Of a stretch of DNA of 16,952 bases, positions 125 to 14,694 are shown piece by piece. The stretch spans positions 1 through 16,952 of the forward strand of contig JAHQXB010000142.1 of NCBI GenBank assembly GCA_029856435.1. The letters run 5' to 3'. Position 1 is the stretch's first letter. The number at the start of each line of letters is the position of its first letter. The position numbers were made by a program, and so were the translations under genes. A model generated the notes under the pieces. The model was not told the DNA's origin and did no database searches. It was given only the letters and a program-made list of their open reading frames with translations. Source of the stretch: Candidatus Jordarchaeia archaeon. GTDB lineage: Archaea; Asgardarchaeota; Jordiarchaeia; Jordiarchaeales; Jordiarchaeaceae.

Positions 125-192
125 TCCCCAAATCCCAAGGTGCACTAAAAACTTTTTATGACCCGATTTGTTTTTTCGGTTCCAATCGAAAA

Positions 193-1185
193 CTATGATA
201 TTTTGGCTCTCAGTTTCAGAGGTTTTCCCAGAGATTTGTCATATACGAAAAGTAGATCACCCGAGGCAAGATCCATATCTTCAATTTTTGTATCGTCTTC
301 AACAAACCTAGTTTTGTGGATAACCCTAATAGGAGCAACTAATCCTAAAGTTGCAGTAAGACGGTTTTTTAGTTCTCGAATAGTTTCTTTTTTGTCAATT
401 GCATATTCTATCCCTTCCAATCTGTATTCGTCACTACAGATGATACATTTAGGGTTCCTTTCGAGTTTGATTGTGGTGAAGCTTTGGCTTAACCCATCAT
501 AAAATAGATAATTGTCAATCAGCGTAGGTAAATCTAGTAATATTTTGATGGTTTCTTGCGCTTGAATGCCACTGAGGACAGCGCTAATTGTTGAAACTCC
601 GGGGAACTTTGGAGGTTCAACATTTTCCCTCTTCTTCCCCGGGGGTGTACACGATTTTTGGAATCTTTCACGCGGGAGAAGAGGTTGACATTCAAGGCAG
701 GGAGTCCGGTAGGGTATTATGACCTGAATGTTGCCGTACCATCCATACATCCCCCCATGCACTAAAGGTTTTTTTAAACCAACACATAATGAGTTCAGCC
801 AACGTCTAGCCTCGAAGGTATCAAGTCCGTCTACAATTACGTCACTTTCCTCAAAATATTTACGGGGGACTTCAGTCAAATTTTTACTCAGATCTACAAT
901 GTGGATACTCGGATTAATCTCTCTAAGTTTTTGTGCGGCTATTTTGGCTTTAAATTCGCCAATATCTTTTTCAGTAAATAAAAGCTGGCGATTGAGATTA
1001 GATAATTCAATTGTATCCATATCTACCAGTATTAATTTTCCTATACCCATTAATGATAGGAAAACTGCAACCATCGAACCTAATGCGCCAACTCCTGCTA
1101 TGAGTACTGTAGATTGCTGTATTTTCCCCTGATTCCACCCTTCAAGTATTTCCTGCCGATGATACCTACCTTCAACTTTTTCCAA
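193..1185 (-). CDS. Ubiquitin-activating enzyme E1-like protein (ThiF/MoeB/UBA fold with C-terminal ubiquitin-fold domain)
   Basis: Motifs RYHRQ, GVGALGS (nucleotide binding), DxDxIELSNLNRQ, two Zn-type CxxC pairs (CLEC, CIIC) and a candidate catalytic Cys in KSCT. The C-terminal ~70 aa has a beta-grasp pattern. Start moved from the ORF-track position 1251, which overlaps the E2 gene, to TTG at 1185, preceded by an SD-like GTGAGG (330 aa). Confidence 0.92.
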   Translation of the reverse strand: MEKVEGRYHRQEILEGWNQGKIQQSTVLIAGVGALGSMVAVFLSLMGIGKLILVDMDTIELSNLNRQLLFTEKDIGEFKAKIAAQKLREINPSIHIVDLSKNLTEVPRKYFEESDVIVDGLDTFEARRWLNSLCVGLKKPLVHGGMYGWYGNIQVIIPYRTPCLECQPLLPRERFQKSCTPPGKKRENVEPPKFPGVSTISAVLSGIQAQETIKILLDLPTLIDNYLFYDGLSQSFTTIKLERNPKCIICSDEYRLEGIEYAIDKKETIRELKNRLTATLGLVAPIRVIHKTRFVEDDTKIEDMDLASGDLLFVYDKSLGKPLKLRAKIS

Positions 1186-4049: not shown

Positions 4050-5831
4050 TTACTCGATTGAAAGTTGGGGCTCTTTCCTAGTATATTTGCCTTCGCCTTC
4101 AACAGTATAGGATAGTGAAATCTCCTGTCCCGGCTCTATTCTCATAAATTTCCATGTAAGCACTAAGCCGTCGATAGTTTCAGTAACTTTTGGCGGCATT
4201 TCCTCTGGTTTCCACTCCACCAAACTGAAACCGGGGGCTACAAAGTCCTTTACTGTGACGTTTGCGATGGAAACTTCTCCGGTATTCACTATTGCCAGTG
4301 GAATTATGTGTTGTCCTGCTTTTGCGCCCGGAGATATAGCCTCTTTGTATATTCTTACAGCGCGTCGAGTATATTTGATTCCAATTTTTGGAGGGTTTGT
4401 TTCCAGCTCCAAGTATTCTACATTGGGTCCTGGTGATGTTGTGTTTGCCGTTGCTCTTAGTGGGGTTGTATAGTTCTTCTCAGGCTTTGGCTCCCAAGCC
4501 ATAATGGGGTAAACAAATTTTACATACTGTCCGGGATTTAATCCACCCACAAAGTTTTTCAGGTTCCTGACAAAAACCGTGAATCCGTGTCTTGTTGCAG
4601 GATTATCGTCGTTGGGATTGGTTATGATTTCTATGCCTTGAGATAACTCCTTTTCATTTACATAAACTTTTACGCGTTCATGTGCTGGGGGTTTGAAGTC
4701 TTCTGGAATGGTGTCGTAGATTGTTACCTGATCCAGCTGGGCGCTGCCAACATTTGACACTTGTACCGTTACAGTCATAGGTGTTTTGTCGTAGGCATCA
4801 ACTTGGGGCGGGGTGAATGTTTTCTCAACCAGAATCCTCTCCACTGGTAGTATAGTGTCCTCCTTTGTAATCTTGGCATATACGTGTCGTGTTACCTCTT
4901 TAACCACTTTGTAATCGACGTTTGTTTCAAAAACTGGGATTGTAGGACTTTTTATGCTAAATTTGTATTCCCAAGATTGCCTTGGTGGAATATCCTTGTT
5001 GGGCTCCAGAACAAGGAGTGGCTCCTTCTTTTCTCCTTTTATTTGGAAGACTTCCACTTTGAGAAGCCTTTGCAGAAATTCGCTGGTGTTCATAAATTCG
5101 AGTGTGCAATCCCAAGTTGATGGTTGGCTGGGGGATTCTGCCGGTTCCAGCGCAAATCTGCTGTCAGAAACAGAAATAATGTCAGGATTGAGGAGCGATC
5201 TGGTTCTATCCTTAATGTGGTACTCTGCGATAACTTTGCCCGCAGCAATTGGGTCTATGGACTCTGCGGTAACGCTAAATTTAACGACTAGTGATGCTTC
5301 ACTTCCCGGAGATAGTTCGAAGTTCTTCCATACAACTTCCCTCGTTTCAGGTTCAAATTCTGCGGTTCCCGTGTTAGGCGGTTCTATTTCTGGATCTCCA
5401 AAACCCTTCGGTATGAACTTTCTAACCTTTACCCTGTCTATGTACGCGTCTGTGGGGTTACTAACCGTTATAGTGCTACTCACGGGCATGGGTCTACGGT
5501 AGACCAGCGCCCAGTTAACTATATCATCTTCGTAGCAGGTGTCTATTACTTCCTTCAATTTAAGTACTGTTTCCTCAACAGGTACGCTATACTCCATAGT
5601 CCATTTTTTGCCTGCCTGTACTGCACCAACTGGTATGACACTCTCCTTCAAGGAAGTGGTTTCGATGCCTCCTAATCGAAGCTCAGCATTCCATATTCTA
5701 TTCTTCGAACTATTGTTGTTTACGGAAATGACGCCTTTTACATTTAGACTTTTGATTTCATGTTTCTCTGTGATAACGCAATCAACGTTCTCAGTTACAT
5801 CCACATTAAGTTTTATTCCTTCTGCGCTCAC
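4050..5831 (-). CDS. Mu-adaptin homology domain (MHD)-like protein with additional Ig-like (DUF11-type) domains
   Basis: The N-terminus LNVDVTENVDCVI...VKGVISV...ELRLG and the segment GTAEFEPETREVVWK...PGSEASLVVKF resemble the mu1/mu2 C-terminal domain. Two further beta-sandwich repeats follow (VTVQVSNVG...IYDTIP; LAIVNTG...VKDFV...LTWK...IEPGQ). No signal peptide. CDS certain, annotation moderate. Confidence 0.7.
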   Translation of the reverse strand: MSAEGIKLNVDVTENVDCVITEKHEIKSLNVKGVISVNNNSSKNRIWNAELRLGGIETTSLKESVIPVGAVQAGKKWTMEYSVPVEETVLKLKEVIDTCYEDDIVNWALVYRRPMPVSSTITVSNPTDAYIDRVKVRKFIPKGFGDPEIEPPNTGTAEFEPETREVVWKNFELSPGSEASLVVKFSVTAESIDPIAAGKVIAEYHIKDRTRSLLNPDIISVSDSRFALEPAESPSQPSTWDCTLEFMNTSEFLQRLLKVEVFQIKGEKKEPLLVLEPNKDIPPRQSWEYKFSIKSPTIPVFETNVDYKVVKEVTRHVYAKITKEDTILPVERILVEKTFTPPQVDAYDKTPMTVTVQVSNVGSAQLDQVTIYDTIPEDFKPPAHERVKVYVNEKELSQGIEIITNPNDDNPATRHGFTVFVRNLKNFVGGLNPGQYVKFVYPIMAWEPKPEKNYTTPLRATANTTSPGPNVEYLELETNPPKIGIKYTRRAVRIYKEAISPGAKAGQHIIPLAIVNTGEVSIANVTVKDFVAPGFSLVEWKPEEMPPKVTETIDGLVLTWKFMRIEPGQEISLSYTVEGEGKYTRKEPQLSIE

Positions 5832-5979: not shown

Positions 5980-6669
5980 CTAACTTATACTAAACTCTGT
6001 TCCTGCTAGCCATTCTACTCTTATTTCATCACCTGGCTTCATTTTCCTGAAATTGGTTTTGGGAGCTACGGTTTGGGCATGGGTAAAGAAGTAGTCTATT
6101 TCATGCTCGGTTTTAATATGCATGGGTATGGCCAGCTGTGGTTTAATGTCTGCGATGGCGTTTAGTGATTGGCTACTGTTAAAGGCTTCTGTTTCGTCTA
6201 CTCCAATAAGCAAAACATCGATTGGATACTGTTCTAATAGTCCCTTAGTCATGGCATCCCCGAGGTTTGCTACTCGCACTTTGTCTATTTCTACTATGAA
6301 GCATAGATTGGGGGTGTTAATTGGCTCTCTGGATGGGCCGTGCCTAAGTTCCAGAGCTGTTATTTTTATGTTAGGTCTCTCAAAGGTTTCTCCGCTTTGT
6401 ATTTTCCTTACAAGCCATTCCGGCGCGCCTTCCTTTAGGGCTACTTTGATAGTTTGCTCGTCCCCCAGCAGGAATGCCTTTTGTTTTGCGGAAAGTTGGG
6501 CGGCGTTACCCAAATGATCCCTATGCTCATGCGATACACAGATAATATTTGTTTTTTCAGACTCGGGCACCAATGCTTTATTACTCACTATACCTGGATC
6601 GAAAATAACGCTGACCTTAGGCGAGTAGAATTTGAATGCCGCGTGGCCAAAGTACTTTAATACTGGCAT
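5980..6669 (-). CDS. Metallo-beta-lactamase-fold metal-dependent hydrolase (UPF0173/UlaG-like)
   Basis: Motifs YFGHAAF, IFDPG, HEHRDH (HxHxDH), LGDA and terminal IPMH. The start is placed at ATG 6669 (GGTGA 7 nt upstream) rather than 6708. Confidence 0.9.
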   Translation of the reverse strand: MPVLKYFGHAAFKFYSPKVSVIFDPGIVSNKALVPESEKTNIICVSHEHRDHLGNAAQLSAKQKAFLLGDEQTIKVALKEGAPEWLVRKIQSGETFERPNIKITALELRHGPSREPINTPNLCFIVEIDKVRVANLGDAMTKGLLEQYPIDVLLIGVDETEAFNSSQSLNAIADIKPQLAIPMHIKTEHEIDYFFTHAQTVAPKTNFRKMKPGDEIRVEWLAGTEFSIS

Positions 6670-9653: not shown

Positions 9654-9858
9654 CCTTATAAATCGTGGAGGACAAAAGTCTAATTTTTGACGTCCACCGT
9701 TTTTTAGATGAATAATTTTTTAACCTTAGGTTAGACTTATTTATGTTTCTCACACTTCAATAATATAGTCTTGATTCTATCCTCAAATCTACCAATTGAT
9801 ATAAGGAATTCATTCACAAAGGGTGTTAGCCAAAGAAAAAACGCTGGGAGACCAAAAA

Positions 9859-12525
9859 ATGAGTGAAAAAGTAGGTCTTCTTAAATATATGCAAAAAGAA
9901 CCTACGCCCAAAAAGGAACCTTCTCAAGAAAAAATAGAGGAAATCGAAACCGAAGTTGATGAGGAGGTGAGTGGCGATGAGGAGGAAGAAGTGGAGGTAA
10001 AGTTTGAGGGATTGCCCTACTTTTGCCCCGAAAATTACGGTCCAGGTTTAGTTCTATCGGTGGAGTACGATGGAAAAAGCAATCTGGCATTCGCGCGTTT
10101 ATACGACCCCAAAACCAAAAAGCTCTTTTGCTGGTATGATAATACCAACCACCATCCCTACTGCTACTCCGACCTTGACTGCGAAAAATTACGACAGAAT
10201 AAAAAACTGATGAGCCACGAAGGCTTACTAAACTTTGAAGAAGTCGAAAAATACGATTTGCTCTCCGACAAAACCGTAAAAATGACAAAAATTGTGGCAA
10301 AAGACCCACTAGCCATAGGCGGCAAAACCAACTCCATAAGAGAAATTCTGCCCAAAGCTTGGGAAGCCAGAATCAGATATCACGACAATTTCATCTTCGA
10401 CAGAAACATAATCCCCGGACTCTTCTACCAAATAGAAAAAGGAAACATAATAAAAACTACCACCGAAATTCCCAGCCCCATAAAAAAACAATTGGAAACC
10501 GCCCTAGGAGAAACAAACAAATTCAGAGATGTGCTCGACGAGTTCCTCCCCCTATTCCTAACCCCAGTACCCGACATAAAAAGAGCCGCCATAGACATAG
10601 AAGTCTACTCCCCCATCCAAGACAGAATACCCGACTCATCAACCGCAGAAAACCAAGTAATATGCATATCAATAGTTTCCAGCGAAAACGAGAACAGAAT
10701 TTTGCTCCTAAGGAGAGAAGACGTCGAAGCCGGAGAACGGCCCAAAGGCCTACCCCAAGATGTCAAAATAGAATACTTCAACAGCGAACCCCAAATGTTA
10801 AAAAGGGCCTTCGAAGCCATGAGCGAATACCCCATAATAATCACCTTTAACGGCGACAACTTCGACTTAAGGTACCTATACAACAGAGCCGTCAGACTGG
10901 GCGTCAAAAAAGAAGAAATACCCATAATCCTAACAAACGAATTCGCCTACATGACCACAAGCATCCACATCGACCTATACCGATTCTTCCACAACCGATC
11001 CATCCAAGTCTACGCATTTTCAGACCGCTACAAAGAAGAAACACTGGACGCCATATCAAAAGCCCTACTAAACGTTGGAAAACTCACCCTCAACAAATCA
11101 ATCCACAAATTATCCCTCCTAGAACTCGCATACTATTGCTGGTGGGACTCCCAAGTCACCCTCAAACTAACACAATTCGACGGCAACCTAGTCATGAAAC
11201 TAATCATCCTACTAATGCGCATCTCCCGACTATCCGCAGAAGACCTAACAAGACAAGGAGTATCTTCCTGGATAAAAAACCTGTTCTACTACGAACACCG
11301 CATAAGAAACTACCTCATACCCCTCCCAGAAGACATAAACCGCATAAAAGGAATCGGCGAAACCAAAGCAATCATCAAAGACAAAAAGTTTAGAGGAGCA
11401 ATCGTAGTTGAACCAGAGGCAGGAGTCCACTTCAACGTAGCAGTACTCGACTTCGCCTCCCTTTATCCCAGCATCATAAAAGAATACAACCTGAGCTACG
11501 AAACCGTAAGATGCCCACATCCAGAATGCAGAAAAAACATCGTTCCAGAAACAAACCACTGGGTATGCACAAAACGCAACGGAATAACCTCCATAATAAT
11601 AGGCTTCCTAAGAGACATACGCGTAAAATGGTTCAAACCAAAATCCAAAGACCGCACACTAAAAGAAGAGGAGCGAATATGGAACTCCATAGTCGAAAGA
11701 GCACTAAAAGTGTACCTAAACGCCAGCTACGGAGTCTTCGGCGCCGAACACTTCCCCTTCTATTGCTTACCAGTAGCCGAAAGCACCGCAGCCATCGGAA
11801 GATACGCCATCCAGAGAGCCATAGGCAAAGCCAAATCCCTAGGAATGAAAATAATATACGGCGACACCGACAGCGTCTTCATAAAAAACCCTTCACCCCA
11901 ATCCATTGAAGAACTCAGAAACTGGAGCAAAAAGGAACTCCAAATAGACCTTGAATTGGATAAGGAATACCGCTACGTAGCGTTATCCGACCGTAAGAAG
12001 AATTATCTTGGAGTCTTCAGAGATGGCTCCGTGGACATAAAGGGCCTCACTGGAAAAAAGAGAAACACTCCCCAATTCGCCCAGGAATCCTTCCTCAAAA
12101 TGGTAGAAACCCTAAGCCGGGTCCAATCTCAAGAAGACTTTGACAAAGCCAAAAAAGAAATTCAAGAAATTGCGAGAACCTGCTACAACAAAATAAAAAA
12201 CAAAGAATTCAGCCTAGAAGAGTTTGCATTCCACATACAAATAAATAAACCTCTTCACAGCTATGTTAAGACTACCCCGCAACACGTAAAGGCGGCGAGG
12301 CAACTTACCAAGAATGGGAAGGAGCTTAAACCTGGTGATATAATCTCATTTGTGAAGGTCAGGGGTAAAGATGGTGTACGGCCGGTGGAACTTGCAAGTA
12401 AAGAGGAGATTGATACTGAAAAGTATCAAGAGTACCTTAAATCTACTTTTGAGCAGGTGTTGGATGCGATAGGTATAGATTTCCAAAAAATCATTGGGGT
12501 CACTAGGCTAGATATGTGGGTATAG
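9859..12525 (+). CDS. polB: Family B DNA polymerase (PolB1-type, archaeal)
   Basis: Exonuclease motifs DIEV, FNGDNFD and YCWWD. Polymerase motifs DFASLYPSII, K..LNASYG, YGDTDS and KKNY. No intein. ATG 9859 (GGAG upstream) is preferred over GTG 9823. Confidence 0.97.
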   Translation: MSEKVGLLKYMQKEPTPKKEPSQEKIEEIETEVDEEVSGDEEEEVEVKFEGLPYFCPENYGPGLVLSVEYDGKSNLAFARLYDPKTKKLFCWYDNTNHHPYCYSDLDCEKLRQNKKLMSHEGLLNFEEVEKYDLLSDKTVKMTKIVAKDPLAIGGKTNSIREILPKAWEARIRYHDNFIFDRNIIPGLFYQIEKGNIIKTTTEIPSPIKKQLETALGETNKFRDVLDEFLPLFLTPVPDIKRAAIDIEVYSPIQDRIPDSSTAENQVICISIVSSENENRILLLRREDVEAGERPKGLPQDVKIEYFNSEPQMLKRAFEAMSEYPIIITFNGDNFDLRYLYNRAVRLGVKKEEIPIILTNEFAYMTTSIHIDLYRFFHNRSIQVYAFSDRYKEETLDAISKALLNVGKLTLNKSIHKLSLLELAYYCWWDSQVTLKLTQFDGNLVMKLIILLMRISRLSAEDLTRQGVSSWIKNLFYYEHRIRNYLIPLPEDINRIKGIGETKAIIKDKKFRGAIVVEPEAGVHFNVAVLDFASLYPSIIKEYNLSYETVRCPHPECRKNIVPETNHWVCTKRNGITSIIIGFLRDIRVKWFKPKSKDRTLKEEERIWNSIVERALKVYLNASYGVFGAEHFPFYCLPVAESTAAIGRYAIQRAIGKAKSLGMKIIYGDTDSVFIKNPSPQSIEELRNWSKKELQIDLELDKEYRYVALSDRKKNYLGVFRDGSVDIKGLTGKKRNTPQFAQESFLKMVETLSRVQSQEDFDKAKKEIQEIARTCYNKIKNKEFSLEEFAFHIQINKPLHSYVKTTPQHVKAARQLTKNGKELKPGDIISFVKVRGKDGVRPVELASKEEIDTEKYQEYLKSTFEQVLDAIGIDFQKIIGVTRLDMWV

Positions 12526-13782: not shown

Positions 13783-14694
13783 TTGAGCCGTATTAAGATA
13801 CAGGGTGTTATACCTGCTATGGTTACTCTTTTCGACGAGGAGCAGAGATTGGACGAAACAGCTATGCGGGAACATGTAGAGTTTCTGCTGGATAGGGGTG
13901 TTCACGGAATTTTTTGTTTGGGTAGTATGGGTGAGTTTGCCTATTTGTCTGAGGAGGAGAGAAACAAAACTGTTAAAATTGTGGTGGAACAAGTGGCTGG
14001 AAGGGTTCCGGTTATTGTGGGGACAAGCCATTTTAGCACTAGGGTTTCCATAAGGCTTTCCCATGAGGCAGAAAAACTTGGTGCCGACGCTGTGATGTCT
14101 GTTTTAGTTCCCTATTTCCCCCTAACCGAGGAAATGGTCTACAACTACTACAAGAAACTGGCGGAGGAAGTAAATATACCTGTTTTTATTTATAATTTCC
14201 CAATGGTTACTAGATTCGATATAAGCCCCGAAACCATTGCCAAGTTAGCTGAAATTGATAATGTTGTGGGTTTAAAGGACACGGTTATAGACGCAAATCA
14301 TACCAAAAGAGTTTTGGAACTTGCTCCCAAGGACTTTATAGTAATGCCTGGAAGCGAGCTAACTTTACAGGCATCACTGGAAGCGGGAGCAAAGGGGGCA
14401 ATCTTTGGAACCTCAAACATTGAACCCAAACCTCTATGCGAGGTTTTCAAGCTATATAATTCTGGAAACGTGGAAAAAGCGAAGGCGTATATACCTGAAG
14501 CCACAAAACTCTTAGAATTACTACTCGTAGCTCCGATGGAGTGTGGGCCTTCCCTAATAAAAAATGCAATGATGCTCTATGGTAGAAAAATATGCACGGT
14601 GGTTAGAAGTCCACTGCCGCAAATAAACGCGGAGCAACTTGAAAAATTGAAACTTACTATGGAAAAGCTTGGGCTTCCCCATAAGGAACAGTGA
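13783..14694 (+). CDS. DHDPS/N-acetylneuraminate-lyase family aldolase, YagE/KDG-aldolase-like
   Basis: Motifs GVIPAMVTLF, LGSMGEF, IYNFP (Tyr) and VVGLKDT (Schiff-base Lys). Lacks the DapA-specific Arg after YNxP. TTG start directly after GGAGG, so the exact start is uncertain. Confidence 0.9.
   Translation: MSRIKIQGVIPAMVTLFDEEQRLDETAMREHVEFLLDRGVHGIFCLGSMGEFAYLSEEERNKTVKIVVEQVAGRVPVIVGTSHFSTRVSIRLSHEAEKLGADAVMSVLVPYFPLTEEMVYNYYKKLAEEVNIPVFIYNFPMVTRFDISPETIAKLAEIDNVVGLKDTVIDANHTKRVLELAPKDFIVMPGSELTLQASLEAGAKGAIFGTSNIEPKPLCEVFKLYNSGNVEKAKAYIPEATKLLELLLVAPMECGPSLIKNAMMLYGRKICTVVRSPLPQINAEQLEKLKLTMEKLGLPHKEQ

Follow-up and report, generated by a model that had tools for sequence, protein, structure and literature searches.

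A predicted mu-homology domain joined to CLIPPER-type Ig-like domains in a longin-less protein of a Jordarchaeia archaeon

The minus strand of a 16,952-bp contig of Candidatus Jordarchaeia archaeon (GenBank assembly GCA_029856435.1, contig JAHQXB010000142.1) carries a gene whose 593-aa product, here P0001, is probably a soluble, cytoplasmic docking scaffold of the mu-homology domain (MHD) family, a reading in which we place a little better than even confidence. Residues 1-325 would form an MHD that holds an inserted beta-sandwich, two CLIPPER domains follow, and there is no longin domain. The contig was analysed whole, is called the window below and belongs to a genome of 3.54 Mb with a completeness of 97.8%. 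The gene (window:4050-5831) is a single open reading frame with a GTG start and its stop codon at 4050-4052, and the genome holds one copy of the family gene. Membrane traffic in eukaryotes has the AP and COPI adaptors among its hallmarks.

We modelled P0001 with AlphaFold2 (AF2) using an ortholog alignment; all structures that we report are predictions. The full model is all-beta, with a pLDDT of 90.8 and a pTM of 0.71. Its best structural match by VIA-align is mu2 (3h85_A; Z 18.0, root-mean-square deviation (rmsd) 3.5 Å, 228 of 253 residues), where model residues 3..325 lie on mu2 168..435. For 1h6e_A, 210 of the 219 modelled residues are aligned, and 96% of a solved mu2 MHD is covered at 3.2 Å, return strands included. 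The mu1, mu3, mu4, delta-COP and SGIP1 domains come next at Z 14.6-17. Ranks 1-49 are held by MHDs only (mu1-4, delta-COP and SGIP1), and the first row that is not an MHD has an rmsd of 10.1 Å. In mu1, mu2, mu3, mu4, delta-COP and SGIP1 alike, the final modelled residue pairs with model residue 324-327, and this coverage to the end of the domain requires the model to have counterparts of the C-terminal strands with which subdomain A is completed. Foldseek finds MHDs at template-modelling scores (TM-scores, by target) of 0.58-0.67 with E-values around 1e-10, and chains of multiple Ig-like domains only at an rmsd above 30 Å. An earlier note, made from the DNA sequence alone, had proposed an MHD here and a check by AlphaFold and Foldseek; with that check run, residues 1-325 match solved MHDs over the whole domain.

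The same note had set the MHD against a plain string of independent DUF11 domains. We folded residues 2-236 alone (alignment A4, 50 sequences; pLDDT 91.6, pTM 0.81), and the truncated model still returns to subdomain A. Model residues 2..225 lie on mu2 168..412 over 203 residues (Z 16.2, rmsd 2.9 Å), and the top 50 matches are all MHDs, FCHO1 now among them. Since mu2 412 lies in the return segment, the modelled chain re-enters subdomain A after subdomain B (residues 112-213). Strand 215-222 of the truncated model corresponds to about mu2 beta15, while mu2 413-435 is matched in the full model only, up to residue 325. The models thus preserve the A-B-A interleaving, subdomain B sitting within A, and do not show a plain row of separate DUF11 domains.

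On the gene, the N-terminal part of subdomain A (residues 1-111; 5499..5831, minus strand, as for all parts of this gene) starts where the MHD does, model residue 1-4 falling on mu2 166-169, and carries D11, E14, G33, N39-x-S41, W47, Y81 and E94, positions identified from ortholog or family conservation. Subdomain B (residues 112-213; 5193..5498) is the stretch whose sequence comes closest to PF00928 and AP-3 mu, and it is homologous to the C-terminal CLIPPER domains. The first return strand into subdomain A, equivalent to mu2 beta15 in the truncated-model alignment, spans residues 214-226 (5154..5192). The last MHD strands (residues 301-325; 4857..4931) match the C-terminal strands of every solved MHD. 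Between these two stretches, P0001 is much longer than mu2, with residues 214-325 (112 aa) standing opposite mu2 401-435 (35 aa). The model places six strands at 239-309, and the insert carries W240, C242 and N248-x-S250. We infer from the aligned ranges that a third, lineage-specific beta-sandwich of about 75 residues is inserted between the equivalents of beta15 and beta16, at residues ~227-300 (4932..5153; boundaries approximate). The first DUF11/CLIPPER Ig-like domain (PF01345) covers residues 331-470 (4422..4841), and the second, a CLIPPER-type Ig-like domain resembling DUF7507 (PF24346 just under its cut-off), residues 486-593 (4053..4376). The earlier note had described an MHD plus two beta-sandwiches; both tail sandwiches are there, and the one inside the MHD had been overlooked. 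Its broader claim, an MHD fold in a non-eukaryotic architecture, agrees with the lack of a longin domain and with the two DUF11/CLIPPER sandwiches after the MHD.

The relation to adaptor mu subunits can also be followed at the sequence level. The Pfam model PF00928 matches P0001 at residues 127-209 (E 3.1e-6, 27.2 bits) and 16 of the 19 orthologs at E<0.01. A more distant family member, P0054, scores 40.9 bits in an alignment that spans positions 12-236 of the 259 in the profile, above the Pfam cut-off (gathering score) of 31.6 bits. We built a profile from 85 diverse N-terminal (MHD) regions of the family (A2) and searched it against all sequences in the PDB. At E<0.1 it found MHD proteins only, namely AP-3 mu (E 3e-5, aligned to profile positions 110-221), delta-COP (0.017) and AP-2 mu (0.07), and the sole further match was the gamma-adaptin ear at E 0.19. 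The diverse profile was needed, because a single-sequence phmmer search of P0001 against the PDB gave no match and an ortholog-only profile (A1) reached AP-3 mu at just E 0.09. A six-frame PF00928 search of the own genome found nothing at E<=0.01 and is uninformative, as the control genomes were equally silent. Judged by these profile comparisons, the likeness of P0001 to adaptor mu subunits is beyond chance. The two sequence stretches that the earlier note had quoted in support of it were located in P0001 at residues 8-54 and 139-185.

Compared with the MHD of AP mu subunits (AP-2 mu2 3h85, 1bw8 and 1h6e; mu1, mu3 and mu4; PF00928), P0001 shares the all-beta fold with B placed in A, at Z 15.7-18 over 210-230 residues, and a weak but specific sequence relation that includes equivalents of mu2 D176 and E179 in the ortholog group. 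It differs in its third sandwich of ~75 residues, its two CLIPPER domains, a K203 equivalent that is not kept and an identity of 12-18%, and above all in having no longin domain: PF01217 does not match P0001, whose MHD begins at residue 1. Without a longin domain P0001 cannot sit in an AP core and is not an AP mu subunit. The same fold is shared, at Z 13-15.7, with delta-COP (4o8q), SGIP1/FCHo (5aws, 5jp2) and the stonins, in which the MHD is a general motif-docking module on unrelated domains, the role that we propose for P0001. In those proteins, however, the MHD is C-terminal, after longin, F-BAR or disordered regions, whereas that of P0001 is N-terminal and followed by Ig-like domains.

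To the cytoplasmic part of the reading, the N-terminus and the family distribution both speak. The N-terminus of P0001 is polar and acidic and its start position is the same as in the aligned orthologs; neither a signal peptide nor a transmembrane segment was found in P0001, no 19-residue window being transmembrane-like in hydrophobicity, which bears out the absence of an export signal claimed earlier. Among 101 family representatives with a full MHD, a single one has an N-terminal transmembrane-like segment. There are 24 close homologs, all of ~593 aa, in Jordarchaeia, Freyarchaeia, Helarchaeia and Lokiarchaeia. An exhaustive profile search at E<=1e-3 yields 756 clusters (50% identity level), with Heimdallarchaeota among the named members. 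Of 301 genomes from the phylum, 253 contain the family, each with 1-6 matches; it occurs in 77 of the 90 high-quality genomes, and 66 of the 70 genera are represented. This distribution and the N-terminal pattern fit a cytoplasmic, modular scaffold.

Paralogs carry N-terminal extensions that are acidic, HEAT-like or proline-rich or consist of an ~85-aa module with no Pfam match. In some, PPAPPG-type proline-rich repeats precede the MHD, recalling profilin- or SH3-binding tracts, and others have HEAT-like repeats there; notable extensions of these two kinds occur in P0100, P0112, P0089, P0081 and P0141 and in P0105, P0117, P0150, P0169 and P0098. P0001 itself has neither. Extensions of ~110 aa were considered as longin domains and rejected, as they have no Pfam match and their beta-beta-alpha-alpha pattern, assigned by eye over ~85 aa, is too short.

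If P0001 is a docking scaffold, its MHD would offer surfaces to which either a partner protein or a short linear motif binds, by analogy with all characterised MHDs, and the Ig-like tail could act as a rigid spacer or as a second binding platform. In Jordarchaeales, one likely partner is the hydrolase of metallo-beta-lactamase (MBL) fold encoded directly upstream (229 aa; 5980..6669, minus strand; PF13483 at 7.2e-22, HxHxDH intact; start codon chosen by ortholog alignment). The two genes are co-directional and 148 bp apart. Wherever the upstream flank is present at a locus of Jordarchaeia or Freyarchaeia type, the hydrolase gene lies next to the MHD gene, and the pair is kept from 97% down to ~51% identity while the other neighbours change. 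The complex was predicted with an ipSAE of 0.51 (runs 0.49, 0.61 and 0.51), and the highest-scoring of three controls had 0.00; the runs agree in >=96% of contacts, and the pLDDT of the partner is at least 89. When the tool was calibrated, 58 of 80 solved complexes passed the mark, as did 2 of 110 mismatched pairs, and scores <=0.60 comprise only 7 of those 80 solved complexes and both passing mismatches. The modelling thus lends weak support to binding between the hydrolase and P0001.

One alternative explanation is that P0001 is a dedicated non-catalytic subunit that targets or regulates this hydrolase and has no wider scaffold role. The conserved pairing and the contrast with the controls would be expected of such a subunit. 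However, the pairing is seen only in this order, the score of the complex falls in a weak band, and no MBL gene lies within 1.5 kb at the checked loci of other Asgard lineages, yet the MHD protein is near-universal. We consider this explanation unlikely, if the best placed of the alternatives.

The tail raises a different question. PF01345 (DUF11/CLIPPER) matches P0001 with 45.1 bits (cut-off 24.6, E 1.4e-11; best stretch 335-380), is the sole Pfam family above its cut-off in the protein and is matched by all 19 orthologs, while PF24346 (DUF7507) reaches 26.2 bits with a cut-off of 27. The earlier note had suggested using Pfam to decide between PF00928 and DUF11. On the cut-offs DUF11 prevails, but subdomain B is itself DUF11-like, so the choice is not an either/or. 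Residues 331-593 as a whole match the isopeptide-bond Ig-like domains CLIPPER (DUF11, PF01345) and CLIPPER_2 (DUF7507). With the candidate isopeptide triad defined as Lys, acid and Asn (10.1101/2025.04.25.650565), domain 331-470 offers K337, D373 and N463, which are conserved in the orthologs (D373 is E in two); family-wide, N463 is kept in 69 of ~153. An intramolecular Lys-Asn isopeptide bond with a catalytic Asp is a candidate feature of this domain. The corresponding positions of the second domain are K496, D529 and E587, with no Asn. Unlike the known CLIPPER adhesins, P0001 has no export signal and shows Glu/Asp in place of Asn in this second domain.

We compared sandwich units of the family by hhalign on family sub-alignments, D2 being subdomain B and D4 and D5 the C-terminal CLIPPER domains. 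D2 matches D5 at 97.9% (E 4e-13) and D4 at 94.8%, and D4 matches D5 at 97.1%. An N-x-[GS] motif is common to all five sandwich units, and in several paralogs the DUF11 Pfam model matches best within the MHD. For a profile of the C-terminal region (A5), the sole match in the PDB is the gamma-adaptin ear (1gyv_A, E 0.0012, 72 positions); no CLIPPER structure such as 9IFR is matched at E<0.01, and PF02883, the adaptin ear family, has no match in P0001. In the ESM Atlas, archaeal DUF11 clusters, Thermoplasmatota included, are the nearest neighbours of residues 1-330 in language-model features. When shapes are compared, the model of the truncated MHD matches a Thorarchaeota cluster at TM-score 0.90, a Promethearchaeota cluster at 0.89 and a Thermoplasmatota DUF11 cluster at 0.83, and then eukaryotic PF00928 clusters at 0.74 and 0.71. 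The MHD, we infer, arranges in a specialised way repeats of CLIPPER type that archaea already possessed.

The Thermoplasmatota DUF11 proteins with the MHD-like N-terminal fold form a cluster of 776 aa, 23% of which carry PF27408 (AF2028_C), and the match extends over 225 residues with an rmsd of 2.5 Å.

Because subdomain B is still recognisable as a CLIPPER-type repeat, the family may be a relative of the stock that gave rise to the eukaryotic MHD. A further step is conceivable: the eukaryotic MHD, and perhaps the adaptin-ear sandwich, would derive from an archaeal cytoplasmic CLIPPER/DUF11 repeat protein, and the near-universal Asgard family, whose last domain resembles the gamma-ear, would be a surviving relative that was already a motif-binding adaptor recruiting enzymes such as the MBL-fold hydrolase. 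We offer this scenario tentatively and regard it as more doubtful than probable. If true, cargo and partner selection by MHDs would be older than the AP/COPI coat.

The same observations allow a plainer explanation, namely that P0001 is a five-repeat archaeal DUF11/CLIPPER structural protein, of the adhesin, S-layer-associated or porin type, and that the MHD-like packing of its first three repeats reflects convergence or general Ig ancestry with no functional relation to adaptors. That PF01345 alone passes its cut-off, that all five units share a motif and D2 is homologous to D4 and D5, that the nearest named ESM Atlas clusters are archaeal DUF11 and that CLIPPER domains are characteristic of surface proteins would all be accounted for. 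A surface protein is, however, hard to square with the 100 of 101 representatives that lack an N-terminal transmembrane or signal-like segment. Nor would general Ig ancestry lead one to expect the near-complete match to mu2 described above with its return strands, a profile (A2) whose PDB matches at E<0.1 are MHD proteins to the exclusion of other Ig-like folds, or a family member, P0054, that passes the PF00928 cut-off. We therefore judge a structural protein of this kind to be decidedly improbable and retain the docking scaffold.

What the scaffold would bind is best approached from the cargo site of mu2. The spacing of D11, E14 and G33 in P0001 equals that of D176, E179 and G198 in mu2, and this colinearity upholds the alignment of D11 with D176 proposed in the earlier note. 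HMMER pairs the family's 'liditE' with the 'YFDVVE' of mu3, an alignment fragment that is not significant alone. D11 and E14 are invariant in 19 of 19 orthologs. Across diverse family members, E14 is kept in 102 of 110, but position 11 is Asp in just 26 of 102. The tyrosine pocket of mu2, as reportedly described by Owen & Evans in 1998, is made of F174, D176, K203, W421 and R423. In P0001 the K203 equivalent, N38, is variable, and the insertion of ~75 residues adjoins the strand that carries W421 and R423 in mu2. A conserved YxxPhi site as a property of the family is unlikely from these residues, though the ortholog group of P0001 may have one; cargo-adaptor function of P0001 in its strong form is likewise unlikely. 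No AP-core partners are evident. The genome does encode a longin-like protein elsewhere (PF01217, 26.9 bits), and none of the examined loci has a longin gene in the neighbourhood of the MHD gene. Adaptin_N matches in the genome were considered as an AP core and rejected, as they are HEAT repeats that also occur in six control prokaryote genomes. A true YxxPhi-type cargo receptor, acting in a proto-coat with longin and HEAT-repeat proteins encoded elsewhere, could draw on the invariant D11 and E14 of the orthologs, on those longin-like and Adaptin_N-matching proteins and on the HEAT-like extensions of some paralogs, but the scarcity of Asp at position 11 across the family, the variable N38, the inserted sandwich, the lack of longin fusion or neighbourhood and the Adaptin_N matches in controls make it highly unlikely.

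Several points count against the docking scaffold itself. The structures behind it are predictions, and P0001 scores below the Pfam cut-off for PF00928. With D11 not kept family-wide, no ligand site common to the family can be named. CLIPPER domains (PDB 9IFR) are typical of secreted, long fibrillar cell-surface adhesins (10.1101/2025.04.25.650565). The occurrence of the same fold in Thermoplasmatota DUF11 proteins means that the family is not an Asgard-only 'eukaryotic signature'. As for the proposed partner, an AT-rich TATA-like element lies ~45 bp upstream of the MHD gene, giving it a promoter-like element of its own despite the pairing with the hydrolase gene, the checked loci outside the Jordarchaeia and Freyarchaeia types lack that pairing, and the ipSAE falls in a band where, by the tool's own rating, wrong calls outnumber right ones except for guesses that were likely beforehand.

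The family had been listed before. In its account of AP domains, Eme et al. 2023 (Nature 618:992) report all of them in Asgard archaea, 'not fused to each other', the mu C-terminal domain being present without fusion to the longin domain, and in its Supplementary Table 3 the first PF00928 candidate is Jordarchaeia_GBS07_35160. This protein shares the N-terminal sequence of P0001 as given there and is the counterpart of P0003, an ortholog with 84% identity. The statement in the earlier note that MHD homologs without longin have been reported in Asgard archaea is thus correct, an ortholog of P0001 heading that list. P0001 is a member of this listed family, and what is new here is structural and evolutionary detail: to the Pfam-based listing, as presented in that table, we add a predicted fold with its topology, the sandwich inserted in it, the tail of CLIPPER domains, the near-universality in the phylum and the MBL neighbour. 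We found no dedicated study of the Asgard mu homology domain or Adap_comp_sub in the literature. The 'mu/sigma subunit' of Xie et al. 2021, considered as a report of an MHD, refers to the longin domain IPR022775.

These results sharpen the sparse PF00928 matches of 2023 to an MHD of predicted full topology, present in most Asgard genomes, Heimdallarchaeia included, with a sequence link to prokaryotic CLIPPER repeats. The family provides a concrete, clonable candidate for asking what role the MHD had before coats. The occurrence of the fold in Thermoplasmatota cautions against assuming that it is exclusive to Asgard archaea and eukaryotes.

Other genes in the window, in which Rfam and tRNA scans gave no match, include a complete, eukaryote-like ubiquitylation cassette on one strand (window:193-2668, minus). 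By Pfam it comprises an E1 (ThiF, 193-1251), an E2 (UQ_con, 1230-1637), ubiquitin (2176-2409) and a RING finger (2417-2668), all on the minus strand. The gap of ~540 bp between E2 and ubiquitin (1638-2175) contains no convincing gene, and a related Jordarchaeia genome has the same gap. The cassette was considered as a conserved partner of the MHD gene and rejected, being near it only in close Jordarchaeia (83% identity) and absent around Freyarchaeia-type and Helarchaeia orthologs. Downstream of the Helarchaeia ortholog (L014:10081-11391) lie genes for a GTPase of the Ras/Roc family (323 aa) and for a ubiquitin-like protein of ThiS/SAMP2 type, the latter a second and different association of the family with a ubiquitin-like gene.

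Convergent with the MHD gene is a gene for a predicted coiled-coil protein of 151 aa with no Pfam family (window:3210-3665, plus strand), which has 153 aa in close Jordarchaeia and is missing from the surroundings of the Freyarchaeia-type and Helarchaeia orthologs. The MBL gene has two more genes resembling eukaryotic signatures next to it. One encodes an ARPC4-like protein (window:7112-7678, plus strand; PF05856 at 30 bits, above the cut-off). The other encodes a 413-aa protein (window:7802-9043, minus strand) that combines an IFT52 GIFT domain with a C-terminal coiled coil, and both this gene and the ARPC4-like one are retained in a related Jordarchaeia locus. Flanked by the genes for a family-B DNA polymerase (9823-12525) and DHDPS (13783-14694), an open reading frame of 336 aa (window:12659-13669, plus strand) has no Pfam match, and a gene of 336 aa occupies the same place in a related genome.

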